Origin: Thermodesulfobacteriota bacterium | GTDB taxonomy: Bacteria > Desulfobacterota > Desulfobacteria > Desulfobacterales > UBA11574 | NCBI GenBank assembly: GCA_042573625.1 | Contig: JBHPCZ010000003.1 | Span: forward strand, 3,154-67,153 | Direction of reading: 5' to 3' | Length of the DNA stretch: 64,000 bases | Shown here: piece by piece, positions 6,320 through 21,086 of the stretch | Layout of the letters: every line of letters begins with the position of its first letter | How positions within the stretch are numbered: position 1 is the first letter of the stretch | The notes under the pieces: generated by a model | What the model was told of the DNA's origin: nothing | The model's database searches: none | What the model saw: the letters and a program-made list of their open reading frames with translations, nothing else | Translations under genes and position numbers: made by a program

Positions 6320-7339
6320 TCAAATATCCAGATCAAACTGATACAGCGACAGATCAAAATGTGCTAAGCGTTGTTCTATTTCCTTAAGCACCTCATCATT
6401 GAAGTGTTCACGCCATTTGCCGGTACGGCTATCACGGATGTGTCTATGGGTGGGATCTTGATCGTCGCTCAGGCTGCGACCCATTTTACCTTCAATATTT
6501 TTCATTGAATCACGGCTGGCGAGCTGCAGAGCTTCATTAAAATATGTGCCGCTTTCCAGAGTGTCCGGATCATGCCCGAAGTATTTGAGCATCTTCCCAA
6601 AATGATCTTTAGGATTCCGCATTAGGGCTTCATAGGTTAACATAAAAATGTTGTCAGGAAATAGTGACTTAATGGCGTAAAAGGTGAAAAACTGTTTGAT
6701 GTAAGCATCAAGACCTGCAGCCAAAAAGTAGTCCTTGACAGAGGAGGAGGAAAAGGAAAATTCGTTGCCAAGAGCGTCAGTATAGTATTTAATATTGCGT
6801 TGATTTTGAGTATGGTGAAAAAATGAGACCGCCTGATCCAGTGGATTTCGGTAAATGTACACAATCCGACTCTGAGGATTATGGGATGGATCGACCATAA
6901 CTTCGTTGCTCTTGATAAGTCCGCCACCAATATCGAAGCCTGACTTCTCACCTCCCCAATCATTCAGGGCTTTCCAAGGTTTAAGATGCTTGCCTTTATA
7001 GCTATTAAAGGCCGGGCAATTGAAGTGTGTTAGAGTAAACGCATCAATACCTATTGTAGCTCCATAATCGTTAATTGAATTCGTTGGAAATGAGTTGGTT
7101 AAAATTTCTTCGACAATCTCTTTGCTATTTCGGCCGAGCAGCAACTGATCGTAAAAGTGAAAGAAGTATTTATTGTACACAGTTCCAGAGCGAGGCATGG
7201 TGCTTACTACTCCCACGCGGGCTCTTGGATGGATTTTCCTTTTCCTGAATTTCCCTGATATTAAAAAGCGCAATTTATAGATTATACTTCGAATCATGCT
7301 CAATTCCTTTACATTTCTTTTTAGTTTTGTTCGCTTCAT
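6320..7339 (-). CDS. PAPS-dependent sulfotransferase-domain protein
   Basis: MPRSGTVYNKYF matches the 5'-phosphosulfate-binding loop (PxxGT). IVYIYRNPLDQAVSFF matches the 3'-phosphate-binding RNPxDxxVS motif of sulfotransferases. The start may be the internal M15. Confidence 0.8.
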   Translation of the reverse strand: MKRTKLKRNVKELSMIRSIIYKLRFLISGKFRKRKIHPRARVGVVSTMPRSGTVYNKYFFHFYDQLLLGRNSKEIVEEILTNSFPTNSINDYGATIGIDAFTLTHFNCPAFNSYKGKHLKPWKALNDWGGEKSGFDIGGGLIKSNEVMVDPSHNPQSRIVYIYRNPLDQAVSFFHHTQNQRNIKYYTDALGNEFSFSSSSVKDYFLAAGLDAYIKQFFTFYAIKSLFPDNIFMLTYEALMRNPKDHFGKMLKYFGHDPDTLESGTYFNEALQLASRDSMKNIEGKMGRSLSDDQDPTHRHIRDSRTGKWREHFNDEVLKEIEQRLAHFDLSLYQFDLDI

Positions 7340-7344
7340 TCATA

Positions 7345-8079
7345 TCATAAAGCCAACCTGAAAAAAAAATCTTCAGCTGATGCATAGGATTCAGGTGTTC
7401 CAATATCGATAAATACGCCCTTACTTTGGAATCCATACAAGCCGTTGCCAACCAGACTCGGAAAAAAGTCCCGTTCCAGAGAAAAAGGCTTATCCAAAGG
7501 AATAGATTCAAAAAGGTCTCTATTGAAAATGTAAACTCCTGCATTGATCCATCCCGGACCACGGCTTGTACTTTTTTCATCAAATTTTACAATTTGTCCT
7601 TGCTTGTCAATCTCAACGCTTCCATATCGGCTGGTGTCTGAAACGTAAGTTAAAAGGAGGGATGCCTGTAAATCTTTATCAAAATACCAGTCAAGATAAT
7701 CTGACAGATTGCAATTTACATACGAGTCTCCATTGGTGACAAATACCGAATCGGTGGCGGCTAGCGGCAATCCAAAACGTAATGAACCGCCGGTACCAAG
7801 GGGTTCGTGTTCCTGAGAATACCGGATAATAATTTCACGATATTTGTCACCAAAAGCCTCTCTGATCTGTTTTCCTTTGTATCCGACACACAAAATCACA
7901 TGGCGGAACCCTGTTGAAATTAATTGATCTAGAAGATAAGAGAGGAAGGGGCGGCCTGCAACCGGAGCAAGTACTTTAGGCCGGTCAGGCAAAGCGTGTT
8001 GTAAGCGGGTGCCCAAACCGCCGGATAGTATCAAAGCAGTGAATTTTTTATCCAGGTTATGTGGAATAGAATATGACAT
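7345..8079 (-). CDS. hddC: sugar-1-phosphate nucleotidyltransferase, D-glycero-alpha-D-manno-heptose-1-phosphate guanylyltransferase-like
   Basis: ALILSGGLGTRL (GxGTR nucleotide-binding loop). ~240-aa size. Overlaps the upstream GHMP kinase gene, the usual HddA/HddC pairing. Confidence 0.7.
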   Translation of the reverse strand: MSYSIPHNLDKKFTALILSGGLGTRLQHALPDRPKVLAPVAGRPFLSYLLDQLISTGFRHVILCVGYKGKQIREAFGDKYREIIIRYSQEHEPLGTGGSLRFGLPLAATDSVFVTNGDSYVNCNLSDYLDWYFDKDLQASLLLTYVSDTSRYGSVEIDKQGQIVKFDEKSTSRGPGWINAGVYIFNRDLFESIPLDKPFSLERDFFPSLVGNGLYGFQSKGVFIDIGTPESYASAEDFFFRLAL

Positions 8080-9043
8080 GGGAGCCTATGTTTTCAAAAC
8101 GAAATGGCACATTTAATAGTCCTTTTAAACGTTTTTTTACTTTATCCTGTCTTCCTGGCGAGACATATAGTAAAATAAAACCGCCACCACCTGCTCCGCA
8201 AAGCTTTCCTCCCAGAGCACCTGCATTCATTGCTTCATCATAAATTCCATCAATTTCTTTTGTTGATATTTTTTCCGTTAGTCCTTTTTTCTGCATCCAT
8301 GATTCATGTAAGAGCCGCCCAAAATCATCCAAATTCTCATCCCTGCTATTTAATATTGACAGCGCTTCATCAACCCTTGTGTACATCTCTCCCAATTCTT
8401 TACTTATTTGAGGAGTTTTTCTTATTTGTTCTTTTGCGATATCTGAACCGATTCGAGATAAACCTGTAAAATATAGTAAAAACCGGGATTGTAATTCATC
8501 AAGCTTTTCAGAATTCAAAGTTACAGGCGTTACCCACAATTTTCTGGTGGTATCAAATTCAATTTTATTAAATCCACCAAATGCTGCTGCTACCTGATCT
8601 TGTGATCCAACATTTTCCTTTATCATTTCTTGTTCAACATGGATCGCGTCATATGCAAGCTGGCGTTTGGTTACCATCATTCCCTGTAAAGCATATAAAG
8701 CGTGAAGAAAGCCGACTGTGAATGCTGAACTTGAACCAATCCCTGATCGAGCAGGAATGTCACCGGTATGGGCCATTTCAATGTTTTTTTCAATATTCAA
8801 ATAGCGAAGGCACTCTCGAACAGAAGGGTGTTTCACATCATCAAGAAAATTTGTTGTTTCAAATTTTGAATACCGTATATGATATTTGAAGTCAAAAAAG
8901 GGTGGTAGTTCCCTACAGTTAATATAACAGTATTTATTTATAGTTGTACTAAGAACTGCTCCTCCATACTCATTGTAATATTTAGGATAATCTGTCCCCC
9001 CTCCAAAAAAAGAAATTCTATATGGTGTTCTTGTAATTATCAT
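8057..9043 (-). CDS. hddA: GHMP-family sugar kinase, D-glycero-alpha-D-manno-heptose-7-phosphate kinase-like
   Basis: N-terminus MIITRTPYRISFFGGGTDYP, GHMP motif DIPARSGIGSSSAF and C-terminal GGKLCGAGGGGF. Paired with the nucleotidyltransferase. Confidence 0.7.
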   Translation of the reverse strand: MIITRTPYRISFFGGGTDYPKYYNEYGGAVLSTTINKYCYINCRELPPFFDFKYHIRYSKFETTNFLDDVKHPSVRECLRYLNIEKNIEMAHTGDIPARSGIGSSSAFTVGFLHALYALQGMMVTKRQLAYDAIHVEQEMIKENVGSQDQVAAAFGGFNKIEFDTTRKLWVTPVTLNSEKLDELQSRFLLYFTGLSRIGSDIAKEQIRKTPQISKELGEMYTRVDEALSILNSRDENLDDFGRLLHESWMQKKGLTEKISTKEIDGIYDEAMNAGALGGKLCGAGGGGFILLYVSPGRQDKVKKRLKGLLNVPFRFENIGSHVIFYST

Positions 9044-9251
9044 TTACTAATTCCCCCAATCGAAAGTTGCCTTGAAAGATTTTTTTCCTTTGATTAAATA
9101 TTATTCTTATTAAAACAATCATCCCCTTGATCAACATAATAATCAACCTAGGGTTAAATGCTGCATCTTTTAACTTTCCCAAAATAATCCTTGGACGAAA
9201 ATAGAAAGATCGTAAAATAGTTAACAACAAAAATATTGGAATCGCGATCTA

Positions 9252-10466
9252 TCATTGATGCTCTCTCTCATAAATGAAATTTCTCAGGCAACTGAGAAAC
9301 CAGTCTATATCTTTTTCATTAATTTCGTGATGAACACCGATATGGATGCCATTGGTGCCTATATATTCTGCATTCGGAAAATCACCGATTTTGTAGCCAA
9401 GAAATTCATAACCGCCGCATTGAGTGGGAATGGATGAGAAGAGCGACCGACTATCGATACCCTGGTGTTCCAAATAGAGCATCAATTCATCCCGTGTGAA
9501 TGGCGCCCCTTTCTTGACAAGAAACGGAAAGGCATGGGGACCGATCCGCTCGAATGATTCTTCTTTAAATGTCCATAGATATGTAGAAAATTCCTCGAAT
9601 TGTTCCATGATGGATCGCAGATTGTGATATCGTTTCCCAAGAATTTCGCCGTAAAGATCAAGATTTCCGAGGCCTAGTGCGGCCTCAAGTTCGTTCATTT
9701 TGCATGAATACCCGATACGCTCGAACTGAAAGCGGATATCCCCTCTTTCTTTATTACTGAAGCGCTTCTCGCAAAATCCTGACGTTGTATTCAATATGCA
9801 CTGTCTGCATTTGCAGGCCCTACCATGTGCCCTTAGAGAACGCAGGATCTCCGCAAATTGAGTGTTATCAGTTACGATGACCCCCCCCTCGCCCGTAGTA
9901 ATAATATGGGCCACGTAAAGGCTGAAAGCCCCCATGTCACCGAGAGTCCCGATATTCTTTCCTCGATATCTGGCCCCGTAAGCTTCGGCGGCATCTTCAA
10001 CCACAACCAGGTTATGTTTTTGGGCAATAGCGATAATCTGGTCCATTGCCGCAGGCTTACCCATAAGATGGGTTGGAATGATAGCGCGGGTGCGACCGGT
10101 GATGGCCGTTTCAATCATTTCCGGTTTGATATTCAATGTTTCCGGATCGATATCAACAAAAACCGGAGTGAAGCCTGCGTGAAGGATTGAATTCCCTGTG
10201 GCCACAAAGGATAAGGCAGGTGCGATCACCTCGTCGCCGCGCTGTCCTCCAATGTCATGTAAAACCGCCAGAGCCAGAGTATCAGCGTCCGTTCCGCTGC
10301 TAACAGCCACCGCCTCTTTCACCCCGACTATATCAGCGAATCGCTCCTCAAATTCACGGACATATTTTCCACCAGAAATGCGCCCCTTCTCCAAACAATC
10401 AAGGATCAGCTTCTTCGATTTGTCAGTAATTGTTATTGTTCCAAACGGAATTCTCATTTTCCGCAT
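9252..10466 (-). CDS. DegT/DnrJ/EryC1-family PLP/PMP enzyme, probably a sugar 3-dehydratase (RfbH-E1/ColD-like) rather than an aminotransferase
   Basis: DegT-family N-terminus (GKYVREFEERFADIVGVKEAVAVSSGTDA). The segment FSLYVAHIITTGEGG carries His where aminotransferases have the Schiff-base Lys. A Cys cluster GRACKCRQCILNTTSGFCEKRF follows, recalling the RfbH/E1 Fe-S region. Confidence 0.8.
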   Translation of the reverse strand: MRKMRIPFGTITITDKSKKLILDCLEKGRISGGKYVREFEERFADIVGVKEAVAVSSGTDADTLALAVLHDIGGQRGDEVIAPALSFVATGNSILHAGFTPVFVDIDPETLNIKPEMIETAITGRTRAIIPTHLMGKPAAMDQIIAIAQKHNLVVVEDAAEAYGARYRGKNIGTLGDMGAFSLYVAHIITTGEGGVIVTDNTQFAEILRSLRAHGRACKCRQCILNTTSGFCEKRFSNKERGDIRFQFERIGYSCKMNELEAALGLGNLDLYGEILGKRYHNLRSIMEQFEEFSTYLWTFKEESFERIGPHAFPFLVKKGAPFTRDELMLYLEHQGIDSRSLFSSIPTQCGGYEFLGYKIGDFPNAEYIGTNGIHIGVHHEINEKDIDWFLSCLRNFIYEREHQ

Positions 10467-10514
10467 TAATGTATGCTCCTCAAAGGTTTATTTGTCTCAA
10501 TCCTGTTCCTTGTT

Positions 10515-11540
10515 TCAAGCAGTGTCAAGATTGTATGCCCTGTCCCCGCCTCCAGCGACAGCGGCAAATCTGCCGAGACACATCTCAACAAGCGTATCAA
10601 AGGAGTGGGTCGCTTCCGTGTTCTTCACGAAAACCCTCGGGATACCATAAAAGTCATAGCGGTTCTGTAGTTTTAACCGAGCTACCTCTATAAACCCCAT
10701 TTTCTTAAGCGTTTCATCATAGTCAACAGTGTGCATGCCTGGTTTAAGAATAGCACTGTCACGGATGTAGAAATAACCACCCCTGCGTAGGACACGCGAA
10801 CCTTCTGCCAGAAGCCACAATAAACCAGCGTAGTTGAGCTCGTTCAGAACGTAGCACGCTGTCAGCAAATCCATACTGCCTGCCTTTAAAAGCGGGAATC
10901 TCCAAGACGGAACATGCTTGATTGCGTATCTATTGTTATCAAGCTCAGCCTTGATCCGCTCAACCGGAAACTGGAAGTTCTCGCACTCGATAAGATCAAA
11001 ATATGCCCCTGGTTCTGGCGACAAAAAACGGAAATAGTGCCGCTGAACTCCGTAACTCATGGGACTGGCCTCAAGGGCATAGAATGAAGCATTAAGGAAC
11101 CTCAGGCTGTATAAAGCCGAACTCCCGAGACCGGGACCTATGTCAACATGATTCGGGTGTTCGGGCAAACTAGTGCAGTGACGTTTGATAAAACTGTAAT
11201 CCTGGGTTCGTGTTAGAGCTTGGCTCCGCACATTGTGGGCCCATGTTTTAGATTTAGCAAGAAAAGGAAAGAAATGGAGGAAGGCCTTCGCCATTTCTTT
11301 CTCGCAGCACTGCTTGACCTCCTCGTAATCGGGCACCATCATCTCCTGAGGCGTATCCTTCTGGACGTAGAACATAGAGAAATAGAATGCCACTGCATAC
11401 ATATTTTCAAGATCGAGTATATTTGCTTTGTGCATATTTTCAGTCCACTCAAATGGTGAACCGAGACGTGCCACCCTGTCGCCGAATATCCATTCTTGTT
11501 CAACCAGGGCTCTTTTAAGTGATTCTCTAACGTCCTGCAT
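10515..11540 (-). CDS. putative class-I SAM-dependent methyltransferase
   Basis: VDIGPGLGSSALYS (motif I-like) and LRRGGYFYIRDS (post-motif II). The start is placed at MQDVRESL (11540), which follows a GGGGGT Shine-Dalgarno and avoids overlap with the upstream FkbM gene. The longest ORF would start at 11639. Confidence 0.55.
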   Translation of the reverse strand: MQDVRESLKRALVEQEWIFGDRVARLGSPFEWTENMHKANILDLENMYAVAFYFSMFYVQKDTPQEMMVPDYEEVKQCCEKEMAKAFLHFFPFLAKSKTWAHNVRSQALTRTQDYSFIKRHCTSLPEHPNHVDIGPGLGSSALYSLRFLNASFYALEASPMSYGVQRHYFRFLSPEPGAYFDLIECENFQFPVERIKAELDNNRYAIKHVPSWRFPLLKAGSMDLLTACYVLNELNYAGLLWLLAEGSRVLRRGGYFYIRDSAILKPGMHTVDYDETLKKMGFIEVARLKLQNRYDFYGIPRVFVKNTEATHSFDTLVEMCLGRFAAVAGGGDRAYNLDTA

Positions 11541-11562
11541 TTTAAAGTGTACCCCCTTTTTT

Positions 11563-12618
11563 TTATCTTTGTCTATAGGGCGGCACATCGTCGTAGTCAT
11601 TGATATGTCGCCGCTCATCCACAAAACGCCCCACTTCAAAATTGCTACTCTCTGGAAAGGCTTTTACTCTATCAAACAAGTTTAATAATTTTTGATACGT
11701 CTCAGCTGGATCAAGATGAGCAACGCGATGAACGAGTTGTTCTATTCGCCTGGCTTCTTCCCCCTGTGCCCATGTTTTTAACGCCACTTCCAGGGCAAAA
11801 TCATAATAGCCGGTCAAGAGTGCACAGGCAAACAGGACATAATTACTCCGATCTGAGAGGGGCTTCTGGCGAACATCATTAGCCAGGGGGTCTTTAAAAA
11901 AGACCGCATCAGCCCAGAAAACGCGTTCTCTCCCTGCCTCAACCATTTTATTTAAACGTTTACACGATCTATAATGCAAACCCTGAAAGCCATAAAAATA
12001 AAAACCACGTTCGCGTAGAAACATCTCAATTTCTGAAAAAAGCTTCTGATCCGAATAAAAAGGAACGAAATTTACTTCCACAAGAATAGCGACTGTGCGC
12101 CCCCATAATGTCTTTTCAGCGCCATTTAAGACCTCCCATTCAACACCCTGTGCATCCAGTTTAATAAATTCGCCACAGGTGTCCACCAGATCCTTCCGTT
12201 CAAATAACACCTTGTCAAGTGTTGTGGTTCGAATGGAAGTAGTCCCTTTTCTCTGGAGACTATTTATATTATAGCGCTGAACGATGGCCGGGTTTTCAGG
12301 TCTAAGTGAGTCAGTTACCGGGGCGGAAAAACGGTGCAGGGTACCCGGTCCTTCTTGGCCAGCCAGCGCCAAAGGGAGTATCTGGATCACTGAATACGGT
12401 GATTGGCGGTGGCAACTATTTCTTAAACGTGTGCATTCGGCCTCGTCAAGATCAAAGGCCAGCACTGCCGTATTTTCAGCCAGCGGTTCGACGAGAGGGT
12501 GAATGCCCCCACGAGCACCAATGTCTATAAAGCCGAGCGGATTGGCGCGCAACTCGGAACCTACTGCACTACCCATAAAAAGCGGTTCAGAGGTTAAACA
12601 ATTAATGCCTTTTAACAT
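11563..12618 (-). CDS. FkbM-family methyltransferase
   Basis: FIDIGARGGIH (SAM motif) and FIKLDAQGVEWEVLNGA are hallmarks of Methyltransf_21/FkbM proteins. Confidence 0.8.
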   Translation of the reverse strand: MLKGINCLTSEPLFMGSAVGSELRANPLGFIDIGARGGIHPLVEPLAENTAVLAFDLDEAECTRLRNSCHRQSPYSVIQILPLALAGQEGPGTLHRFSAPVTDSLRPENPAIVQRYNINSLQRKGTTSIRTTTLDKVLFERKDLVDTCGEFIKLDAQGVEWEVLNGAEKTLWGRTVAILVEVNFVPFYSDQKLFSEIEMFLRERGFYFYGFQGLHYRSCKRLNKMVEAGRERVFWADAVFFKDPLANDVRQKPLSDRSNYVLFACALLTGYYDFALEVALKTWAQGEEARRIEQLVHRVAHLDPAETYQKLLNLFDRVKAFPESSNFEVGRFVDERRHINDYDDVPPYRQR

Positions 12619-12672
12619 CTAAAATACCTCCTGATCAAGTGTCGCCTTTGTCTGGAAAGATGGAGTGTGCTT

Positions 12673-14154
12673 CTACTCACTTAAAATCTTCCTTTTCAGC
12701 TTGATTTTAGTCATGCCTTGGATGTGTTCTCTGGATTCTCTTCCGAACTTTTTTTCTATTAAATTCAAATAATCCTGATTGGTAAAATACGTATTAAACA
12801 CATGATCGCGGAATCTAAGAATCTCCGCAGATGACAATGACTCAGTGGGGAGCGGGAGAAAATCGTATCCCTGTGAGGCGTAACCCAACCACGATTCAGG
12901 CAAAGGAGTATTATTTTTGAGTGCTTTACGGTAAAGGTCGGAACCGGGAATTGCCATGGTGCAAAAAAAGCTGGGGAAAGCGCACTTTAGTTCCAAAGCA
13001 AATTCGAGATTTTCCTGCATTGTTTCGAGAGTGTCGCCGGGAAGTCCGAACATGAAGTTGGCACAAAGGTCTATTCCAGCACCATGTACTTTCTTTACAA
13101 CTCTCCGGATGATGTCCTTGGTGAAATTTCCTTTTTTGCTACGCTTGATTATTTCTACATTGCAGGACTCGATTCCGAGCTTAAACCAATTGAACCCGGC
13201 CTTTTTAAGAAAGGTAAGTTCTTCCATAGACGTTTTGTCTAAAATATCCACTCTTGCAAAGGAAGCGATATTGAGGTCATATTTGCGTTTCAGAATTTCT
13301 TTCGCAATAGGGTGGTAATGACTGTGCTTGAAGATAAACAGTTCGTCATGCAGATTAATATTCTTAACGTTGTATTTGTTCACCAGCAGATCAAATTGAC
13401 CTATCACCCATTCTGGATTCCAGGTTCTTAATTTGTGTTCTCCATAGGTTGCATGAATCGCACAGAAGTTGCATCGGAAAGGACAGCCGAGACTGGTGAA
13501 CAAAGACACAAACCTATTTCTCGAATTCAAATCACCCAAACACATCCAGTTAAATGCCCTATACCTGTTCTCATTCATCGGCAGCAGATCCCAGGCTACC
13601 TCGGGCAACTCCCGGGTGAGATCGGCAATATTTTCTGCACGACGGTTGCTTTTAATTTCTCCGTTCTCTTCCCACCATAGGCCACGAACCTCGCGGTAAT
13701 TTTTCCCGGAGAGCAGATCCTTCAGTGAATAAAAGCCTTCTCCTTGGATTACGAAGTCACAGGCTTCTTCCAGGAGGGTTCTCTCTGGCAATGCGGAAGG
13801 ATGCCATCCTGTAAGGATAAGGTTTTTTTCGGGAATCTTTTCTTTAATCTTGCGGCATAATTCACCTACACCGACCATTATGGGGGTAGAAACATTTGCC
13901 TGCTGACTGTAACAGATAATCGCAATGTACTTTGGGGCATCCCGCTGAATCCGTTCAACGGTTTCATCATAATCGATGTTTTCCGCGTTTGCGTCTAACA
14001 CTCCAACACTGAAACCCTCTTTGCGCAAATATCCGGCAGTAAGAATTGCCCAAAAAGGCGTATCAACTGCTGAATAATCCTTACTCAATTCCTGATAGAT
14101 ACGTTTCCGGGAACCGCCTGGGTTAATCAATAGAATGTCAGGGTTCAAAGTCAC
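12673..14154 (-). CDS. B12-binding-domain radical SAM enzyme (class B)
   Basis: N-terminal Rossmann-like B12 domain (ILLINPG..., AIICYSQQA). CxxxCxxC cluster motif SLGCPFRCNFCAI. 493 aa. Confidence 0.9.
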   Translation of the reverse strand: MTLNPDILLINPGGSRKRIYQELSKDYSAVDTPFWAILTAGYLRKEGFSVGVLDANAENIDYDETVERIQRDAPKYIAIICYSQQANVSTPIMVGVGELCRKIKEKIPEKNLILTGWHPSALPERTLLEEACDFVIQGEGFYSLKDLLSGKNYREVRGLWWEENGEIKSNRRAENIADLTRELPEVAWDLLPMNENRYRAFNWMCLGDLNSRNRFVSLFTSLGCPFRCNFCAIHATYGEHKLRTWNPEWVIGQFDLLVNKYNVKNINLHDELFIFKHSHYHPIAKEILKRKYDLNIASFARVDILDKTSMEELTFLKKAGFNWFKLGIESCNVEIIKRSKKGNFTKDIIRRVVKKVHGAGIDLCANFMFGLPGDTLETMQENLEFALELKCAFPSFFCTMAIPGSDLYRKALKNNTPLPESWLGYASQGYDFLPLPTESLSSAEILRFRDHVFNTYFTNQDYLNLIEKKFGRESREHIQGMTKIKLKRKILSE

Positions 14155-15070
14155 TCCTTGTGCTCATTTGCAGTAGAAAACTCTTCAGGGAATCTCCGTC
14201 AATGCCTATTCTGCGTCTCAGTTCTTCACGTCCGGGATTGCCGAGTATAAATGCTTCTGGTGGGCCTCTCCGAACTATTTTCAAATGGCTATTTGTTTCT
14301 GATTTCCAAGCACAGATTTCATGATAAAGCCCTCCCTGTGGAATACTCTCCTCAGTGATAATTGCAATGGCATATCTGTCTGCAATTTCGGCAAAGCACT
14401 CTCTGTCCACAGGTTTTACTGTGTGAAAATGATAAAGCGCTGGATTTATTTTGCTCCCTTCTAATTCCCGCATCTTCGGGTAAATGTCGGAAACTATGTC
14501 ACCCGAGGTGAGTACCGCCACCTTCTCGCCATCGATCAATTTCCTGGCCTTCCCCAAGCTAATTGAAGAATCGTGTCCAACTTCCGATTCGCCAAATTTT
14601 CCAACGCGCAGATATGATGGCCCCTTAAGCTTCAGCATCTGCGGCATTAATTCCCGGAGTTCATCAGGGCCGCCGGGGGTAACAATGCTCATGTTTGGTA
14701 GAGCTCCCATCAGAACCAGATCATCGGCAGCATGGTGAGTAACCCCAGCCTGGGCATACGTGAAGCCGCCGCCAGCCCCGACGACCATTACCGGCAAATT
14801 ATGGTAGGCTATCCCGAAGCGAATCTGTTCGAACGGTCTGGCCGTAACAAACGACCCGATGGAATAGGCAATCGGCCGCCAGCCCTCCAGAGCCAAACCC
14901 ACGGCGGTGTTTATCAACTGCGCTTCGGCGACGCCGACATTCACATATCTTGTTGGAAATTGTACGATGAATTCATCGAAGACTTGGAACCCCAGATCCC
15001 CCGTCAGAAAAATTATTCTCGGATTTTCTTTCGCTACATTGACTAGCATGTCTGAAAATGCTTTTCTCAT
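14138..15070 (-). CDS. transketolase, C-terminal (pyrimidine-binding) subunit
   Basis: MRKAFSDMLVNVAKEN..., FLTGDLG, VNVGVAEAQLI, AADDLVLM. The start at 15070 follows a GAGGT SD. The longest ORF would start at 15112. Confidence 0.85.
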   Translation of the reverse strand: MRKAFSDMLVNVAKENPRIIFLTGDLGFQVFDEFIVQFPTRYVNVGVAEAQLINTAVGLALEGWRPIAYSIGSFVTARPFEQIRFGIAYHNLPVMVVGAGGGFTYAQAGVTHHAADDLVLMGALPNMSIVTPGGPDELRELMPQMLKLKGPSYLRVGKFGESEVGHDSSISLGKARKLIDGEKVAVLTSGDIVSDIYPKMRELEGSKINPALYHFHTVKPVDRECFAEIADRYAIAIITEESIPQGGLYHEICAWKSETNSHLKIVRRGPPEAFILGNPGREELRRRIGIDGDSLKSFLLQMSTRSDFEP

Positions 15071-15083
15071 TGAAGCAACCTCA

Positions 15084-15932
15084 TTAATAAAAGGGTTCCT
15101 CTTCGATTTCAACGAGAGCCCTGTCTAAGTCGTGCTTGGACGGGCTTCGATAGAACCAAACCTGATCTTTTTCCATAAAGCTGACTCCGGCTCCGCTGAC
15201 GGTATTTGCGATTATCACAGAAGGTTTTTCCGGTGAAAAAGGAAATTTATTAAGTGCGTCAACGAGAACACTAATATTATTGCCGTTTACAGAGATTGCT
15301 TCCCATCCGAAACTGCGAAACTTCTCTTCGAGCGAGGTAAAGCCCATGAGTGCATCGCTCCGGCCAACAGCCTGTGAACCGTTGCAGTCAACAATAGCCA
15401 AAACGTTGGTAAGTTTCTGCGCTGCCGCGAACATGGAGGCTTCCCAGACGCTTCCTTCGTTACATTCGCCGTCACTCATGAGCACAACCGCCCTGCTTGT
15501 CAAGTTCTGGTCAAGTCGTAGACCATAAAGAATGCCCCCGGCGATGCCTAAACCATGCCCAAGACTGCCGGAAGAAATTTCCAGATGCGGCAGCGCATAT
15601 TTACAGGGATGATTCGGCAACAACGAATCGGTTTGCGCATATTCCTTGAGTACCTCCCGGGGAATGATACTAAATGCGGCCATGGTAGCGTAAAGCGCCG
15701 AGCACCCGTGGCCTTTGCTCATGATAAAACGGTCCCGTTCCAATTTACAACTCTTTCCACCATCACAGTAATTGAGGAATCCTCCGAACAAAACCGTCAG
15801 TATATCAACACAGCTCAATGCGGAACTTACATGAGTCTCCCCGGCGTTAAATGCCATTTTTACGCATGTAGCGCGAATCCGCCCAGCCATCTTTTCCAGT
15901 TCCTTTGTTTCAAACATTGCCATTTCCCTCAT
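15084..15932 (-). CDS. transketolase, N-terminal (ThDP-binding) subunit
   Basis: SKGHGCSALYA, GSLGHGLGIAGG and the ThDP motif VLMSDGECNEGSVWEA. Confidence 0.9.
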   Translation of the reverse strand: MREMAMFETKELEKMAGRIRATCVKMAFNAGETHVSSALSCVDILTVLFGGFLNYCDGGKSCKLERDRFIMSKGHGCSALYATMAAFSIIPREVLKEYAQTDSLLPNHPCKYALPHLEISSGSLGHGLGIAGGILYGLRLDQNLTSRAVVLMSDGECNEGSVWEASMFAAAQKLTNVLAIVDCNGSQAVGRSDALMGFTSLEEKFRSFGWEAISVNGNNISVLVDALNKFPFSPEKPSVIIANTVSGAGVSFMEKDQVWFYRSPSKHDLDRALVEIEEEPFY

Positions 15933-15933
15933 T

Positions 15934-17235
15934 TCAAAAATTTATGTGCCTTTCCCTCAGGTAAGTCTGAACGGTTTCGTGGTTTTCGACAATCTCATCC
16001 ATACTCATGCTTTCACCGAAAGGCGTAACTTTATCATACTCAAAGAAGTGGGGGGCCTTTTCATCATCGTCGAAACGGCCAAAAGCGAATAGGTATTTAT
16101 CGAACGGCACGTTTGGATTTATCTTCATTCCAAAGCGTTGTGGATTATTCCATATTTCTGAGCCCGGAATGGGACACAAGATTGAAAGTGATACGTTCGA
16201 GGGCTGGACCTCCTCAATGAAATCGATCGTCTGCTGCGCAATGTTCCGCGGTTCCCCTGGAAGCCCCAAAATCAGAAGCAGTTTGATGTCGAGCCCTTCC
16301 TGCCGTAGAACCCTGAAGTATTCTTTTGCTTTCACGAGATCAATTTTTTTGTTCATGATGTCAAGCGCGCGTTGAGAAACACTCTCGATTGCCACGGCGA
16401 TCTCGACACAACCGGTTTCCTTTGCCAGTCTTACTGTATCGGAATGAACCCCGTTAGCCCTGGACTGTCCCCTCCATAAGATGTTCGCCTTTCCGATCGC
16501 TTCGAGCATACTGCGGGCACCTTTCCTGTTGGTATGAATGCCTTGGTCATCTTTTAAAAGGATTGATTGGACTTGATATTCGCGCTTGAGATATTCTATC
16601 TCTTTCACGATCCATTCTGGTGAGCGTACCCGGATGGGACCTTTGTACTGGTTTGAGCAGAAGTGGCAGTCGAATGGGCAGCCTCTCGAGAATAGCACAG
16701 AGGTCCCAAGCAGGTCGTAATACTTCTGGCTCAGCATGCCGACATCCACAATAGCAGATTTTGGCAGATACTTCCGGAGCGGAAACGGGTAATTGTTGAT
16801 GTCAATTGTGCCGGTCTGACGGTATATTTTCTTGAGTTTCTTATTGAAAATGTCTTGTATCATCTGTTTGATGATCTCTTCACCTTCCCCTATACAGATC
16901 GCATCAAAGGTATTTAGACTCTCCTCGGGAAAGATGTTCGCATGCGGGCCACCGGCAAGGTGAAGGGCTTTAGGATAGAAGCGCCTAACCGCCGCAATGA
17001 TTCTCTGGATCTCGGCAATCTCGGGGGTGGTCACGTAGTGAAGGTAGACTTCCAGTTCCGGGATGTGATAGATCATCGAATCTTCATCAATCCCCCGCAG
17101 GTCGGTGTAGCTTAGACTCAGCCGATCGCCGAATTCCTCTTCCAATATTGTTAAGAGGTATAATGGGCCGAGCGGATCGATCCTAAACGGTTTCTCGTTC
17201 TGTTTCCCACTGGTGTTTAGGAATCCAACTCTCAT
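15934..17235 (-). CDS. B12-binding-domain radical SAM enzyme (class B), second paralog
   Basis: N-terminal B12-like domain followed by the SRGCPFDCHFCSN CxxxCxxC motif. 433 aa. Its stop lies 1 nt before the transketolase-N start. Confidence 0.9.
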   Translation of the reverse strand: MRVGFLNTSGKQNEKPFRIDPLGPLYLLTILEEEFGDRLSLSYTDLRGIDEDSMIYHIPELEVYLHYVTTPEIAEIQRIIAAVRRFYPKALHLAGGPHANIFPEESLNTFDAICIGEGEEIIKQMIQDIFNKKLKKIYRQTGTIDINNYPFPLRKYLPKSAIVDVGMLSQKYYDLLGTSVLFSRGCPFDCHFCSNQYKGPIRVRSPEWIVKEIEYLKREYQVQSILLKDDQGIHTNRKGARSMLEAIGKANILWRGQSRANGVHSDTVRLAKETGCVEIAVAIESVSQRALDIMNKKIDLVKAKEYFRVLRQEGLDIKLLLILGLPGEPRNIAQQTIDFIEEVQPSNVSLSILCPIPGSEIWNNPQRFGMKINPNVPFDKYLFAFGRFDDDEKAPHFFEYDKVTPFGESMSMDEIVENHETVQTYLRERHINF

Positions 17236-17285
17236 GAAGGCCTCCTTCAGAAATTAAGTTTCCGTTCCCGCATAACGGCCTGAAG

Positions 17286-17530
17286 CTACATATAGATGTT
17301 AATTATCTGATCGGGAGCCATCGCACGACCCCATGGCGTCTCGCGATCATACTCGAAGACCAGGTGCGGTTTCTCGCTCTCCTCAAAGCGCCCAAGTGCA
17401 GACTGATACTTGTCGAAACCAACGCCGGATGGTCCTTTGCCAAGTAATCATCAACTCCCGTGACCGCTCGCCTATCAGACCAGGTATATTGATCAAAGAA
17501 TATCGAATTTCGTTCATCCGCTTCGATGTC
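17286..17530 (-). pseudogene. 3' remnant of a radical-SAM paralog (frameshifted fragment)
   Basis: The minus-strand translation GVGFDKYQSALGRFEESEKPHLVFEYDRETPWGRAMAPDQIINIYM* aligns with the C-terminus of the adjacent rSAM (NVPFDKYLFAFGRFDDDEKAPHFFEYDKVTPFGESMSMDEIVEN). Upstream pieces (DIEADERNSIFF / INIPG) lie in other frames. There is no start codon and no N-terminal domains. Confidence 0.6.
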
Positions 17531-18115
17531 CTATATGATCGATCTATCAATAAATGTTTTCAGCAGAAAACGTGATATTATTGCGGCAGGAGAGCTCAAA
17601 TATATTTCGCCACTGACCAGCCTCTGTGCAGCGTCTGTAAAAGATATTGCTTCAACGGAGACGATCTCATTGTCATGTCTTGAGCGGGAAACGAACTCAG
17701 ACTGACTCACATCCACACTGAAAACGCTCAGAAGGACTGGTATTCTGCCAGGCAGCTCGGAGACAGGCAGCTCAGGGACAAAGCGACGGGGGTCAGTTAT
17801 ACCTATACCTGTTTCTTCCATGAACTCCCGCATGGCAGCCGTCCTCGGGGTTTCTCCAACCTGCGAATCACCAGCTGGGAGTTCTAAGGGACAGTCATCA
17901 ATCAATGGGCGCTTCACACGAATCATGACGATGAAATCTCTCTCCAAGACAGGAAGTATCACAACCTGAGATCGCTTATATTCCATAGTGTAGTAGGTTC
18001 CTCTCGCCATCACCTGAAACCAAGGGTTTTCGTGCGCGAGGGAGACCGGTTGTAATTCAGGACACAACAGTGGAGAGGGGCTGTCTGGATCGCATGGAAG
18101 CACTTTTCTTGTCAT
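17531..18115 (-). CDS. Nudix hydrolase (nucleotide-sugar hydrolase role inferred from context)
   Basis: Nudix box GDSQVGETPRTAAMREFMEETG (Gx5Ex7REUxEExGU). The start overlaps the upstream dehydratase stop as ATGA. Confidence 0.85.
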   Translation of the reverse strand: MTRKVLPCDPDSPSPLLCPELQPVSLAHENPWFQVMARGTYYTMEYKRSQVVILPVLERDFIVMIRVKRPLIDDCPLELPAGDSQVGETPRTAAMREFMEETGIGITDPRRFVPELPVSELPGRIPVLLSVFSVDVSQSEFVSRSRHDNEIVSVEAISFTDAAQRLVSGEIYLSSPAAIISRFLLKTFIDRSII

Positions 18116-19128
18116 CTGGACAAAACCTTCCTTCCAAACCTGATTCTATCACGCCAATATTCAAGCAAATCTTGCATAGTTTTTTCAAATGGTATTCTTG
18201 GCTCCCATCCGGTATGTTCCTTAAATTTTGAGGTGTCTGGAACCTGAAGGTCGGCATCTAGAGCGCGTAGCCGGGATTTCTCCGTTTCTACCTTGATGTC
18301 ATTAATGGAGGAGAGAGACAGCAGATAATCCAGCATTTCTCCGACAGTGCAAGAAAATGCCCCACCGATGTTATAGTACTCCCCAGGGATGGGTTTGATC
18401 GTTACCAGCATGAAATATGCCTTCACGGCATCACGTACATCTGACCAAGTGCGCAGAGAATTCAAATTGCCGGTTTTAACAATTGGTGGAATTAATTTTT
18501 GTTCGATCATTGCGATCTGCTTTGCAAAACTGGATTCCGCAAAGACATCGCCCCGCCTGGGACCCGTATGAGTAAACATCCGGGTCACAACAACCCGTTG
18601 ACCGTAAGCCTCAGCATGGAATCGCCCTAGAAGGTCGGTACCAATCTTGGAGATGGCATAAGGAGACGCCGGGTGGAATGAACATTCCTCATGAATCGGA
18701 AGCTGGTCACGCGGCACACGGCCGAACACTTCCGAAGACGAGCACACGTGAATAACTGGATCAATACCTTTGCATTTTCTCAAGGCTTCGAGCAGCTTTT
18801 CCGTGCCCTGAACATTTGTGTCCAGAGTTTGTATCGGAGAGGTGAAACTCGTTTCAGGATAGCTCTGGGCTGCAAGGTGAAAAACATAATCAGGGCTGCT
18901 TTCCTCCACCGCATTTTGCAAAGAAATATAGTCGTTGAGATCTCCATTAATAAAATACAGCCTATCTTTCTTGTTAGCCCTGTCCAACAGATGCTCAACA
19001 TTATCCAGCGGACTCCGCCAGCGGCACATGCCATAGATATCCCAATCGGTCTTTTCCAATAAAAAGTCAGACAGATGGGAACCGACCATGCCGGTTATGC
19101 CTGTTATAAGTGCTCTGTTCTTTCTCAT
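18112..19128 (-). CDS. NAD(P)-dependent SDR epimerase/dehydratase, GDP-sugar 4,6-dehydratase (Gmd)-like
   Basis: ALITGITGMVGSHLSDFLL (GxxGxxG Rossmann loop), SSSEVFG and the YAISK catalytic YxxxK. 338 aa. Confidence 0.8.
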   Translation of the reverse strand: MRKNRALITGITGMVGSHLSDFLLEKTDWDIYGMCRWRSPLDNVEHLLDRANKKDRLYFINGDLNDYISLQNAVEESSPDYVFHLAAQSYPETSFTSPIQTLDTNVQGTEKLLEALRKCKGIDPVIHVCSSSEVFGRVPRDQLPIHEECSFHPASPYAISKIGTDLLGRFHAEAYGQRVVVTRMFTHTGPRRGDVFAESSFAKQIAMIEQKLIPPIVKTGNLNSLRTWSDVRDAVKAYFMLVTIKPIPGEYYNIGGAFSCTVGEMLDYLLSLSSINDIKVETEKSRLRALDADLQVPDTSKFKEHTGWEPRIPFEKTMQDLLEYWRDRIRFGRKVLSR

Positions 19129-19327
19129 TTCAATACGCTTTATTCATAGATACGGCTTCTTTAGCTTTTAACATACTTGAATTCTAAGCAAACTGCAGGA
19201 TGCTATATTCCAATTAACAAAACCTGTCAAGGTAATGCGGCTATCTTTGGTAAATCAGGCAGGGCAAATTGTCTATTTGTTGTTTCACTACTTAGTCCTG
19301 TGATTATTGATTTTCACAATACTTATT

Positions 19328-19410
19328 TACATCCATAAAATCAAATGGTTTTAAAGCAGATGCCCACGGGCGGAAGCCCGTGGGCATCTGCTAATTTTGA
19401 TAGGGATGTA
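19328..19410. repeat. long imperfect palindrome with a perfect 15-bp GC-rich core stem (19356-19370 / 19377-19391)
   Basis: gcagatgcccacggg-cggaag-cccgtgggcatctgc read directly. The flanks tacatcc...atcaaa and tttgat...ggatgta extend the symmetry. T/A-rich runs on both sides make it a possible bidirectional terminator or a REP-like element. Confidence 0.7.
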
Positions 19411-20021
19411 AATGCTGACAATGCTATATAAAGTGAAAACAAGACGATTTTAAGACAAAAAGCGGGAAAAATTGCCCTTATCTAAAAAAGATCGAAATAG
19501 CCTTACAATTTTAATATAATATTATCATACAAAGTCTGCACATATAACAGCCTCACACCACAGAAAGTTTCGGGTGTAGAGAGTCTTCACTGAAACACGG
19601 ATGTGCTTATCAGATGCAAGCCGTTTGTTGTAACAACCCTGTGTGAGTTGAAACGCATACAAGCTTTTTTTAGCCTCACGCAAGTATGTGAAAGAGGTAA
19701 GTCCATCAACATTGGGCTACGCCTCTTTTGTATGTTTCCGATGGGACTTTTTGGAGATTAACTAAGAAAAAGGAGTTGAAAAATGAAGCTTTATTCAACA
19801 AGGCAGGATATAGCGTTAAGTCACGAGAGAAAGCAAGCCTCATTACGGGAAGGATGAAACAGGGTGTCGGTCGTTGGCAGTACGGTCGCCAACAAATCGA
19901 AAGATGGCATACTCCCAATATAGATATGATCCTGTTCAAGGTGGAGCCACAGTGGATAACACTAACAGAAATGGTCTTAACCAATTTCAGAATGTTTCTC
20001 ATACTTTTTGGTCTACTTTCT

Positions 20022-21086
20022 TCATCTCAACTTCTGTAGAGTACGCTTAACTCTCCATTGGAGCCATGTGCGGGGGGTTTTTAGAACACTTGGCCGATAA
20101 TTTGCTACGATCTTCACTTTTGAAAGCGTTTCTTCATTCTTTGCCCATATCCTATTATTTTTGTTGTTTTTGTGAAATTCTATGCATTTAAACCGCTTAC
20201 CAAATATATTTATGATAGGGACCATATCGCTGTCTCCGTTATCCTCATAAATAATACCGTCCTCAGCAAGTATGTCCTCAATAACGTCAACGTATTGGAC
20301 AACTTGGTCCTTGGTCATCTCTCCGAAGGAGCCGGTGTTGATGACAAGATCGAATTTGTCGGTATTACTCAGATCATTGATTAAAAAGTTTGGCAGAAAA
20401 ACGAAACCATTTTTTGGAGCGTTGAGCAAATCGGACTTACTTCCGTCATAGACAACTCCGCTTGCACCGTCCAGCCCTCCAGTTAAGGTAAGATAAACCG
20501 AAGAGAATGCCAGAGATTCAGGAAGGTCAACTAGATAGTATCCAGAAGGTTTAAGTATCTTCCAAAGAAAATAGGCAAGACCGCCATAACCAGAACCGAT
20601 TTCTAGGACACGATTTGAGTCTTTCGAGCGAACATAATCCAGCACCCTAGAGAAATATAAGTTTCCTATGTGATTCTGGCACATTAGGACATCTTTATTT
20701 ACCACACCTCCATTTATTTCCCAGCCAATTTCACCGAGCATGCGTGGTGGTCGAGCAATCATCTCCGAAGGCAAGCCTGCCGTCAACTGATGATACTCCT
20801 CCTTAAGAGAGTCAGGAAGTGGATTAAATATATGGGGAGCCGCACCTCCGAGGTAGTGTCCTGTAAACATAAAGGTATGCAACCGCCAAGTGTTTACGAT
20901 GTCGTAACTAGGATTAAGAACATAGCTGTAAAGTTTAATTAGCTTCCACATAGGGCTAGGAAGCGAGAGCTCTTCTTGAATATCGCCTTGCTCTATTAAA
21001 CATTCCCGAATATCTAAAAGACCACGAATTTTATTTAAAGTTTCTAAGGCTAACATGAATTCATTCTGATTAATTGGTACAAACAC
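20022..21086 (-). CDS. putative class-I SAM-dependent methyltransferase
   Basis: VLEIGSGYGGLAYFL (motif I) followed by YYLVDLPE (acidic motif II) and VINTGSFGEM. 354 aa. Confidence 0.55.
   Translation of the reverse strand: MFVPINQNEFMLALETLNKIRGLLDIRECLIEQGDIQEELSLPSPMWKLIKLYSYVLNPSYDIVNTWRLHTFMFTGHYLGGAAPHIFNPLPDSLKEEYHQLTAGLPSEMIARPPRMLGEIGWEINGGVVNKDVLMCQNHIGNLYFSRVLDYVRSKDSNRVLEIGSGYGGLAYFLWKILKPSGYYLVDLPESLAFSSVYLTLTGGLDGASGVVYDGSKSDLLNAPKNGFVFLPNFLINDLSNTDKFDLVINTGSFGEMTKDQVVQYVDVIEDILAEDGIIYEDNGDSDMVPIINIFGKRFKCIEFHKNNKNNRIWAKNEETLSKVKIVANYRPSVLKTPRTWLQWRVKRTLQKLR

Follow-up and report, generated by a model that had tools for sequence, protein, structure and literature searches.

What sugar is made by a densely packed gene set that joins heptose-activation genes to a split transketolase and two radical S-adenosylmethionine (SAM) enzymes? 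We addressed this question for an operon on the minus strand of a 64-kb stretch of contig JBHPCZ010000003.1 (the window, at its full length), from a Thermodesulfobacteriota metagenome-assembled genome (MAG). The operon comprises 12 genes between 19128 and 6320, ~12.8 kb (Table 1). An initial annotation had predicted that its product is a C-methylated and/or C2-branched or chain-extended deoxy-heptose, made by no characterised pathway. Our analysis supports this prediction: the scaffold appears to be a heptose, its 3,6-deoxygenation is predicted, and no known pathway matches the set. We concluded that the operon probably serves to tailor nucleotide sugars, and that it pairs a thiamine diphosphate (ThDP) enzyme with a radical SAM enzyme in a way that has no precedent. 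Its early steps match the known 3,6-dideoxyheptose route of Campylobacter jejuni, and its ThDP and radical SAM steps are without a characterised counterpart. None of the operon proteins reaches the cut-off of an NCBIfam equivalog model; therefore, none is a trivially annotated enzyme.

Our preferred reading is that the operon makes and decorates a deoxy-heptose activated with guanosine diphosphate (GDP), for lipopolysaccharide (LPS) or a surface glycan. We consider the heptose scaffold, its 4,6-dehydration and its 3-deoxygenation to be likely. The whole chain, with C2 branching included, is a tentative proposal, to which we would give somewhat less than an even chance.

The probable heptose scaffold and its predicted deoxygenation

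The first gene of the operon encodes a short-chain dehydrogenase/reductase (SDR) of the extended type. Over its full length (337 aligned residues), this protein is 53% identical to the C. jejuni GDP-heptose 4,6-dehydratase, an enzyme characterised in both structure and biochemistry (PDB 7US5; 370 bits, E 9e-110), and therefore we take the scaffold to be a heptose. Its motifs 'csSSEvfg' and 'spYaisK' align with those of 7US5, with SSSE and YxxxK kept. The next-best matches were Rmd (187 bits) and Gmd (~134 bits), and the score against the Gmd model TIGR01472 was 155 bits, where the cut-off is 415. Of the original label, a Gmd-like SDR dehydratase, the dehydratase part stands and the Gmd identity does not. 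We also ruled out a colanic-acid-like GDP-mannose module of Gmd and Gmm, as the SDR is below the Gmd cut-off and is an orthologue of the heptose dehydratase, and the Nudix hydrolase encoded next to it resembles pyrophosphatases of adenosine diphosphate (ADP)-ribose and nucleoside diphosphate (NDP)-sugars. The best PDB matches of this hydrolase were ADP-ribose/ADP-sugar pyrophosphatases, at a weak 31–35 bits, and its counterparts in the two closest related loci (L071 and L072, see below) have NDPSase_N and NUDIX domains. Hence, it appears to be NudF/NudK-like and not Gmm-like.

The kinase and the nucleotidyltransferase had been annotated as HddA-type and HddC-type. These labels agree with the best matches, which are heptose enzymes, and the curated cut-offs are not reached. 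For the kinase, the best PDB matches were the heptose kinases 3K85, 4N3O and 4USK/WcbL, and the top NCBIfam family was HddA (NF049969; 163 bits, cut-off 600). For the nucleotidyltransferase, the best PDB match was HddC of the Yersinia 6-deoxy-manno-heptose pathway (6JQ8/5XHW; 131 bits), and the HddC model (NF049965; 164 bits, cut-off 300) was tied with mannose-1-phosphate guanylyltransferase (166 bits). Other heptose genes occur in related cassettes: a GmhB-like phosphatase in L010, and GmhA together with a nucleotidyltransferase–GmhB–kinase fusion in L075, from the MAG of a Thermoplasmatales archaeon. The latter locus (4846–15843) also carries a homologue (50% identity) of the smaller radical SAM enzyme of the window, and two HddA-like kinases. 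One of these is 62% identical to the window kinase and adjoins a DegT gene; the other is 39% identical and adjoins GmhA and the fusion. Both scored ~145–165 bits against the HddA model, so that the NCBIfam model gave no discrimination of a true HddA.

The DegT-family enzyme was initially said to have dehydratase-type features, and this proved correct. In an alignment to perosamine synthase, His ('YVAHIITT') stands at the position of the catalytic Schiff-base Lys, both in the protein of the window and in all its 17 orthologues (18/18). The best NCBIfam match was RfbH (E1), at 264 bits with a cut-off of 423, and the similarity to ColD and E1 was remote (~170–190 bits). From these sequence features, we classify the protein as a pyridoxamine phosphate (PMP)-dependent 3-dehydrase of the predicted E1/ColD type. 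It also has an invariant four-Cys motif, C-x-C-x2-C-x9-C (GRACKCxxCxxNxxxxxCxKRF, residues ~218–235), at +32 to +47 from the His. The motif was absent from the lower-identity DegT paralogues that were inspected, one of which has a different, E1-like Cys cluster; the perosamine synthase reference aligned only up to the four-Cys region and cannot show the motif. In position, the motif presumably resembles the Cys ligands of the [2Fe-2S] cluster of E1, with spacing that is not the same. This suggests that the enzyme may have a metal or Fe-S site whose spacing is distinct from that of classical E1.

The transketolase-like enzyme and its radical SAM partners

The operon encodes a transketolase-like ThDP enzyme as two subunits, TKN and TKC. 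For both, the best PDB match was the split transketolase of Carboxydothermus hydrogenoformans (6YAK, 187 bits for TKN; 6YAJ, 133 bits for TKC), and the scores against the NCBIfam transketolase model (224 and 132 bits, respectively) do not reach its cut-off of 488. We aligned 40 cassette-associated transketolase sequences for each half. Residues are given here in what we take to be the E. coli transketolase numbering, mapped via the 6YAK/6YAJ alignment. The window pair keeps the equivalents of His26, His66, His100, Asn185, Glu411 and His473, and its GDG motif reads SDG. Nearly all aligned sequences retain the residues for ThDP and metal binding and for core catalysis; two TKN sequences are without the His26 and His100 equivalents. 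The equivalent of Arg358, a phosphate ligand, is conserved in all members. Other substrate positions are altered: His461 is Gly throughout the aligned family, Asp469 is Ala in the window and Ala/Ser across its subtype, Arg520 is Lys in the window and Lys or absent across the family, and the donor ligand His261 is Phe in the window and three relatives. The pair thus looks non-canonical, with ThDP and catalytic residues kept and the ligands for a phosphorylated α-hydroxy-aldehyde acceptor lost. The two transketolase halves are present, as first annotated, and they do not make up a canonical transketolase. A housekeeping transketolase supplying sedoheptulose-7-phosphate is disfavoured by these residue changes, by synteny, and by the replacement of the pair in one locus, described below.

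The two radical SAM enzymes, named rSAM493 and rSAM433 after their lengths, both carry a CPFxCxFC motif and are distant paralogues (22% identity). The former has the class B architecture, namely a B12-binding domain and a CxxxCxxC core, and belongs to a very conserved family of ~491 aa (>120 clusters at >=59% identity). The latter is class-B-like, with a Rossmann-like N-terminal domain followed by CPFDCHFC. Its family counts 299 proteins at E<=1e-30, and orthologues 77–83% identical to it were found in L022, L026, L071 and L072. The description of both as B12-radical-SAM enzymes therefore holds for rSAM493, whose B12-binding match is above the Pfam cut-off, and falls just short of it for rSAM433. 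The best NCBIfam match was HpnJ (TIGR03471) at 160 bits for rSAM493 and 104.5 bits for rSAM433, where the cut-off of 577.6 is not reached.

For both enzymes the closest solved sequence is AprD4 (42–53 bits, 19% identity), with the higher score, to 6FD2, for rSAM433. We compared the AlphaFold model of rSAM493 (mean predicted local distance difference test score, pLDDT, 87.6) with known structures by Foldseek. Again, AprD4 was the best fold (template modelling score 0.71–0.78), and MgmA, TsrM, OxsB, CysS and TokK were close behind. As AprD4, a cobalamin-free diol dehydratase, is nearest in both sequence and fold, methylation is not established, and the initial assumption that class B radical SAM enzymes methylate by default is not safe in this case. 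An attempt to tell a methylase from a dehydratase by structure was set aside, since the AlphaFold/Foldseek result was ambiguous. The radical SAM and transketolase genes appear to belong to glycan-locus-specific families and not to housekeeping or other non-glycan ones, which had been named as an outcome that would speak against the prediction.

We scanned species-representative genomes and found 66 rSAM493-related loci, all in MAGs. The orthologous rSAM493 clade is made up of 38 species-level loci, and the counts below refer to these. The carriers are from Lentisphaerota/Victivallales, Planctomycetota, Elusimicrobiota, Omnitrophota, Kiritimatiellae/Verrucomicrobiota, Nitrospiraceae, Syntrophorhabdus and several Desulfobacterota orders including Geobacteraceae, at least eight phyla overall. 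A split transketolase lies within 10 kb of rSAM493 in 35 of the 38 loci; where enough flank was available, it directly flanks rSAM493 on the same strand (26/31). A GHMP kinase is present in 29/38, a nucleotidyltransferase in 28/38, a 7US5-like SDR in 18/38 and a Nudix gene in 17/38, the SDR–Nudix pair being found in 17–18. Such a grouping of genes is not due to chance. The initial annotation had proposed a search for the same gene set in synteny and for loci with an already defined glycan. The set does recur, and none of the 66 loci has a defined glycan; in full-text searches of the literature, no account of such a set came up.

Two layouts were observed. In one the order is SDR–Nudix–rSAM–TKN–TKC and the transketolase is of another subtype (~30% identity to that of the window), and in the other the order is TKN–TKC–rSAM and the transketolase is 45–70% identical to that of the window. 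In a more distant rSAM clade (~40% identity; Desulfovibrionales and others), the kinase, the nucleotidyltransferase and a His-type DegT are retained, while the transketolase is nearly always missing (present in 2 of 28 loci). In L005 (12688–13890) and L004 (13783–14982), a radical SAM enzyme of another type, ~400 aa with a UPF0004/MiaB-like N-terminal domain and Radical_SAM, stands in place of rSAM433, to which it is 25% identical over the core only.

The closest relatives of the operon, L071 and L072, have a collinear cassette with identities of 42–86%: SDR 80–81%, rSAM433 82–83%, TKN 78–81%, TKC 78–82%, rSAM493 84–86%, the homologue of ORF 10515–11540 60%, DegT 63%, kinase 53% and nucleotidyltransferase 42–44%. 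The Nudix gene is also present, and there is an additional 740-aa radical SAM enzyme. The context of this cassette differs from that in the window, with GGDEF and TPR genes flanking it and a giant multidomain glycosyltransferase gene following. A collinear cassette in a different context indicates that the cassette moves and is selected as a unit. The giant protein (3219–4639 aa; L071 16689–21482, L072 16699–21476) combines GT2, GT9, B12-binding/radical SAM and methyltransferase domains.

The Omnitrophota locus L074 has orthologues of the SDR (52%), kinase (59%), DegT (63%), rSAM433 (51%) and nucleotidyltransferase (42%), and of the Nudix gene. At 12–2015, an α/β ThDP pair resembling pyruvate dehydrogenase (PDH) E1 (E1_dh, and Transket_pyr/Transketolase_C; AviB1/AviB2-like), with extra SDRs, replaces the transketolase pair and rSAM493. 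A PDH-E1-like pair is likewise found in L073 (15731–17335), which shares DegT and rSAM433 with the window and whose SDR matches at only ~21–23%. In both loci, the ThDP component seems to have been exchanged for a non-orthologous one.

The proposed pathway and its rivals

According to our preferred reading, the heptose would be supplied by GmhA and GmhB encoded elsewhere in the genome. The first two tailoring steps are well supported. The SDR would carry out 4,6-dehydration to GDP-6-deoxy-4-keto-D-lyxo-heptose, and the His-type, Cys-rich DegT enzyme would then remove the C3 hydroxyl, to give GDP-3,6-dideoxy-4-keto-heptose. This order of reactions, a 4,6-dehydratase followed by a pyridoxal phosphate (PLP)-dependent C3-dehydratase acting on GDP-heptose, was demonstrated in vitro for C. 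jejuni HS:5/HS:11 (PMC10440746). For the next step, we propose that the C4 ketone would be the acceptor for a ThDP-bound two-carbon unit carried by the transketolase-like heterodimer. A ketose or hydroxypyruvate could donate this unit as glycolaldehyde, or pyruvate could donate it as hydroxyethyl, and the outcome would be a tertiary alcohol with a C2 branch on a nine-carbon skeleton. The rSAM493 enzyme may carry out an AprD4-like radical dehydration or rearrangement that prepares or remodels the carbonyl or the branch, or it may C-methylate; rSAM433 would catalyse a second radical step. The FkbM and class-I-like methyltransferases would O-methylate and the sulfotransferase would sulfate the product, while the Nudix enzyme may hydrolyse GDP-sugars for flux control or for clearing off-pathway intermediates.

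The proposal of C2 addition at the C4 ketone rests on four observations. The pair has preserved its catalytic and cofactor residues but not the ligands for a phosphorylated α-hydroxy-aldehyde acceptor; Pfam and NCBIfam scans found no reductase in the operon, a 4-ketoreductase included, and no finishing epimerase is seen here either; 3,6-dideoxy-4-keto sugars are established acceptors of the sugar-branching ThDP enzymes YerE, ErwE and MMAR_2332 (PMC9306805); and a PDH-like pair takes the place of the transketolase in L074. Only two enzyme types have been described for two-carbon sugar branches, YerE and the PDH-E1-like pairs AviB1/AviB2 (PMC4425429). The enzyme of the window falls outside canonical transketolases by its substrate ligands and the curated cut-offs, outside YerE by its architecture and outside AviB1/AviB2 by the domain of its alpha subunit. 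It may nevertheless work like YerE or AviB1/AviB2. As a wider and more tentative suggestion, which we hold with clear reservations, the split transketolase-like enzyme and its radical SAM partner could constitute a third C-C bond mechanism on nucleotide-activated sugars after YerE and AviB1/AviB2. Across many phyla of uncultured anaerobes, such a mechanism would yield higher-carbon sugars that derive from GDP-heptose, have a branch or a longer chain, and carry methyl groups and, in this operon, sulfate as well. Caryophyllose was considered as a heptose-derived product and dropped, since its published scheme is that of a C6-branched 3,6-dideoxyhexose made via a YerE homologue (PMC9306805).

Several observations weigh against this reading. 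At its start, GmhA and GmhB were not found within the 64-kb window, and the existence of two HddA-like kinases in L075 means that the window kinase might not be the HddA step. Domain scans of the window found no E3-like reductase for an E1-type dehydrase. At the branching step, the role given to the transketolase-like enzyme is our best guess, by analogy: the pair is unrelated in architecture to YerE and is 21–22% identical to the PDH-like pair of L074. Also, the transketolase and rSAM493 occur together in many loci that have no 7US5-like SDR (type 2) or, as in many of type 1, no His-type DegT; therefore, the acceptor of the transketolase and radical SAM enzymes is not always a 3,6-dideoxy-4-keto sugar. 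Finally, the modelled fold of rSAM493 fits both the cobalamin methylases and the cobalamin-free AprD4, so that methylation is possible.

The same loci could be explained if the two carbons were added at the end of the chain. An AprD4-like 1,2-diol dehydration of GDP-heptose, for example at the exocyclic C6-C7 glycol, would give an aldehyde or ketone, to which the transketolase would add a two-carbon ketol, leading to a linear deoxy-nonose derivative. Aldehydes are natural transketolase acceptors, AprD4 is the nearest solved relative of the radical SAM enzymes in sequence and in fold, and the loss of Asp469, the ligand of the acceptor α-hydroxyl, together with the phosphate ligands fits a non-phosphorylated, α-deoxy aldehyde. 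Reportedly, E. coli transketolases engineered to take aldehydes of this kind carry changes at the same positions. This explanation also accounts for the near-obligate adjacency of rSAM493 and the transketolase, even in loci without the SDR or DegT. However, the 4,6-dehydratase already removes the C6 hydroxyl here, leaving no C6-C7 diol, and there is no reductase to complete the ketol product. Moreover, the similarity to AprD4 is low, the cobalamin-dependent methylases match nearly as well, and the N-terminal domain of rSAM493 passes the Pfam B12-binding cut-off. We regard chain extension as unlikely.

It is rather improbable that the split transketolase acts before activation, making sedoheptulose-7-phosphate or a higher ketose phosphate for the kinase and the nucleotidyltransferase. 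The LmbR/LmbN/LmbP/LmbK/LmbO proteins offer a precedent for such logic in GDP-octose synthesis. Sedoheptulose-7-phosphate is the start of the heptose pathway, in L004/L029 and L060 the transketolase genes come immediately after those for the nucleotidyltransferase and the kinase, and the Arg358 phosphate ligand is kept in all members. However, the phosphate ligands His461 and Arg520 are lost family-wide, and the NCBIfam transketolase cut-offs are missed widely. The transketolase tracks rSAM493 and not the kinase or the nucleotidyltransferase, the cassettes that have the transketolase-like pair contain no GmhA-type isomerase, and the PDH-E1-like swap in L074 would make no sense for the supply of sedoheptulose-7-phosphate.

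Where GDP-sugar loci contain a Nudix enzyme, its role is usually regulatory, as with Gmm for colanic acid, and this is one reason to dismiss as very improbable a scheme in which the Nudix enzyme strips guanosine monophosphate (GMP) from the modified GDP-heptose and the transketolase extends the freed reducing end by two carbons, by nonulosonic-acid logic, or a second nucleotidyltransferase re-activates the sugar-1-phosphate with a different nucleotide: the Nudix gene is indeed conserved, coupled to the dehydratase gene and similar to NDP-sugar pyrophosphatases, and there are two nucleotidyltransferases in L003 and L010 and two HddA-like kinases in L075, but the window has one of each, and the Nudix product would be a sugar-1-phosphate and not the free aldehyde that the transketolase needs, with no phosphatase in the cassette.

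If C2 branching at the C4 ketone is true, the two known types of two-carbon branching enzyme would be joined by a third, a member of the transketolase family with a GDP-keto-heptose as its substrate. It would also be a natural transketolase that accepts non-phosphorylated, non-α-hydroxylated carbonyls, a property that enzyme engineers had to evolve. Solving the rSAM493 family would annotate thousands of metagenomic genes, and would reveal a class of surface sugar typical of uncultured anaerobes of Desulfobacterota, Planctomycetota, Elusimicrobiota, Omnitrophota and Lentisphaerota. Every carrier known to date is uncultured, and the chemistry is predicted. The cassette is widespread and strongly conserved, and its first steps can be reconstituted in vitro, as both GDP-heptose and the enzymes from C. 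jejuni are available.

Genomic setting and comparison with known systems

The genes listed in the initial annotation were all found as a densely packed minus-strand run, at the coordinates that it had given and, by Pfam, with the domains that it had named; the proteins correspond to NCBI MFC1811230–MFC1811242. The SDR stop and the Nudix start share an ATGA overlap, as had been noted, and the two genes are predicted to be translationally coupled. One nt separates the rSAM433 stop from the TKN start. The rSAM493 gene starts with GTG, has AAGGAG ahead of it and overlaps the end of the TKC gene by 17 nt. The TKC start given earlier, the ATG at 15070, is right, as it yields the family-wide N-terminus MRKAF; a longer TTG open reading frame (ORF) from 15112 was rejected on this ground. 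The ORF 10515–11639 has its true start near 11540, since orthologues begin at residue ~34 of the long ORF. The run had been taken to end at 7345. However, the ATG of a sulfotransferase gene lies 5 nt past the nucleotidyltransferase stop, and from these packed junctions we take the unit to extend from 19128 to 6320, with the sulfotransferase as its probable last gene.

Table 1. Coordinates of the operon genes, in order of transcription, and of other features in the window
Feature	Position	Strand	Domains, scores and remarks
GDP-D-glycero-D-manno-heptose 4,6-dehydratase-like extended SDR	18112–19128	−	First operon gene; Pfam GDP_Man_Dehyd 236 bits (GDP_Man_Dehyd/Epimerase)
Nudix hydrolase, NDP-sugar/ADP-ribose pyrophosphatase type	17531–18115	−	Pfam NUDIX
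Radical SAM enzyme rSAM433, 433 aa	15934–17235	−	Radical_SAM 64 bits; B12-binding 31.5 bits, just below cut-off 32.1
Transketolase-like ThDP enzyme, N-terminal (PP-domain) subunit, TKN	15084–15932	−	Pfam Transketolase_N
Transketolase-like ThDP enzyme, C-terminal (Pyr + C domain) subunit, TKC	14138–15070	−	Pfam Transket_pyr + Transketolase_C
Radical SAM enzyme rSAM493, 493 aa	12673–14154	−	Pfam B12-binding 44.7 bits (cut-off 32.1) + Radical_SAM 63 bits
FkbM-family methyltransferase	11563–12618	−	Methyltransf_21 53 bits; TIGR01444 50.5 bits, above cut-off 37.7
Class-I SAM-methyltransferase-like conserved protein	10515–11540	−	VDIGPGLGSS motif; Methyltransf_11 19.4 bits, below cut-off 21.2
Predicted DegT-family PMP-dependent 3-dehydrase, E1/ColD type	9252–10466	−	Pfam DegT 317 bits
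HddA-like GHMP sugar kinase	8057–9043	−	Pfam GHMP_kinases_N/C
HddC-like sugar-1-phosphate guanylyltransferase	7345–8079	−	Pfam NTP_transferase
Sulfotransferase	6320–7339	−	Outside the initially annotated run; Pfam Sulfotransfer_1 55 bits
Hairpin	19355–19392		Perfect 17-bp stem, palindromic; lies in 0.9 kb of non-coding DNA upstream of the SDR gene
IS1595-family transposase	23413–24216	−	DDE_Tnp_IS1595 + Zn ribbon
TylF (macrocin O-methyltransferase) family	33479–34303	−	349 bits
GFO/IDH/MocA oxidoreductase	41663–43607	−	Adjoins LpxI and LpxB; the coordinates are those of the stretch with this gene

The protein of ORF 10515–11540 had been called a further class-I methyltransferase. Its ORF and its VDIGPGLGSS motif bear this out, and its Pfam methyltransferase matches stay below threshold; it has orthologues at the same position in L071/L072 and is also present in L012 and L014. 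We consider it a probable methyltransferase.

Upstream of the operon, the gap 19129–20021 holds no recognisable gene; two overlapping ORFs of ~100 aa on opposite strands gave no Pfam match. Promoter and terminator scans were not above the shuffled expectation, except for the one strong hairpin, which is a probable boundary of the transcription unit. Had this leader contained a cobalamin riboswitch, that would have spoken for B12 dependence. No riboswitch was found, nor any other Rfam family in the gap, the sole Rfam match in the whole window being a tRNA.

The operon sits in a lipid A/core LPS supercluster. This chromosomal outer-membrane biogenesis region includes BamA, Skp, LpxD, LpxA, LpxI, LpxB, LptF/G, WaaA and LpxK, an MsbA-like ABC exporter, an LpxL-like acyltransferase, three GT9 heptosyltransferase-family genes, several GT2/GT4 genes, methyltransferases and the IS1595 transposase. 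The operon lies at its distal end, and therefore the context is the synthesis of the LPS core or outer core. The transposase gene, 4 kb upstream of the cassette, is inserted between genes for core glycosyltransferases (GT2/GT9), and the G+C content is 45–48% over 10–18 kb and 35–40% over 1–10 kb. These two features suggest that the central part of the cassette is mosaic or was horizontally acquired.

Some neighbouring genes deserve mention. Among the genes for lipid A there is LpxI in place of LpxH, and the adjoining GFO/IDH/MocA oxidoreductase presumably resembles GnnA of GlcN3N-type lipid A pathways. The TylF-family gene lies between LpxK and WaaA, an unusual place for a sugar O-methyltransferase, and its product may modify 3-deoxy-D-manno-octulosonic acid (Kdo) or the inner core. 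On its two sides (298–6241 and 20022–21086), the operon is flanked by genes for an MBOAT O-acyltransferase, a DUF268 methyltransferase and a GT2 protein, and weak class-I methyltransferase signatures were seen in two flank proteins (4125–4733 and 20022–21086). Given these flanking decorating genes, acylation, methylation and sulfation of the final glycan are probable.

Finally, we compared the operon with characterised systems. The radical SAM enzymes share with AprD4 (6FD2; apramycin biosynthesis), which acts on an aminoglycoside sugar and gives a deoxy-keto product, and with the class B methylases TsrM, TokK, CysS and MgmA, an N-terminal Rossmann-like domain ahead of a radical SAM barrel that carries CxxxCxxC. 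However, they reach no curated cut-off, and they are 15–19% identical to the best-matching solved member, and up to 21% (OxsB). The C. hydrogenoformans split transketolase has the same two-gene architecture, fold, ThDP-binding and core catalytic residues as TKN and TKC. It differs in that the equivalents of His461, Asp469 and Arg520 are replaced in the cassette enzymes, as is His261 in the window, and the genes studied here are in a glycan operon, tied to a radical SAM gene, and not in pentose-phosphate metabolism.

Like the transketolase-like pair, AviB1/AviB2 and Pau11/Pau12 (eurekanate and paulomycose; PMC4425429) consist of two subunits, with a beta-type subunit of Transket_pyr and Transketolase_C, and are encoded in deoxysugar clusters; a pair of their kind stands for the transketolase pair in the otherwise orthologous L074 cassette. 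In contrast, the alpha-type subunit of the window has Transketolase_N and not E1_dh, the identity to the L074 pair is low, and the Avi and Pau proteins belong to actinomycete antibiotic pathways that act on sugars bound to deoxythymidine diphosphate (dTDP) or to oligosaccharides.

With the pathways of yersiniose and other acyl-branched sugars (DdhA–D, a YerE-family ThDP carboligase and YerF; PMC9306805), the operon has in common the succession of a nucleotidyltransferase, a 4,6-dehydratase, a predicted E1-type 3-dehydrase that is E1-like and Cys-rich, and a ThDP enzyme for which a 3,6-dideoxy-4-keto sugar would be the substrate. It would differ in using a GDP-heptose in place of a hexose linked to cytidine diphosphate (CDP), there is no YerF-like reductase, and yersiniose-type pathways are without radical SAM partners. 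YerE, ErwE and MMAR_2332 are single-chain enzymes of another family, with what we take to be an acetolactate-synthase-like TPP_enzyme_N/M/C architecture, whereas the fold here is that of a two-subunit transketolase.

The C. jejuni GDP-3,6-dideoxy-heptose pathway of HS:5/HS:11 (Ghosh, Xiang & Raushel 2023, PMC10440746) ends with a cupin epimerase and a C4-reductase, whereas the operon has neither and adds the transketolase-like ThDP enzyme, two radical SAM enzymes, the Nudix hydrolase, methyltransferases and a sulfotransferase. The C3-dehydratase of C. jejuni is closely related to ColD (62–67% identity), unlike the DegT protein of the window, which matches ColD and E1 only remotely and has the four-Cys motif. 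The beginning of the two pathways is alike: both have orthologous 4,6-dehydratases, followed by a DegT-family PLP/PMP C3-dehydratase with His for Lys.

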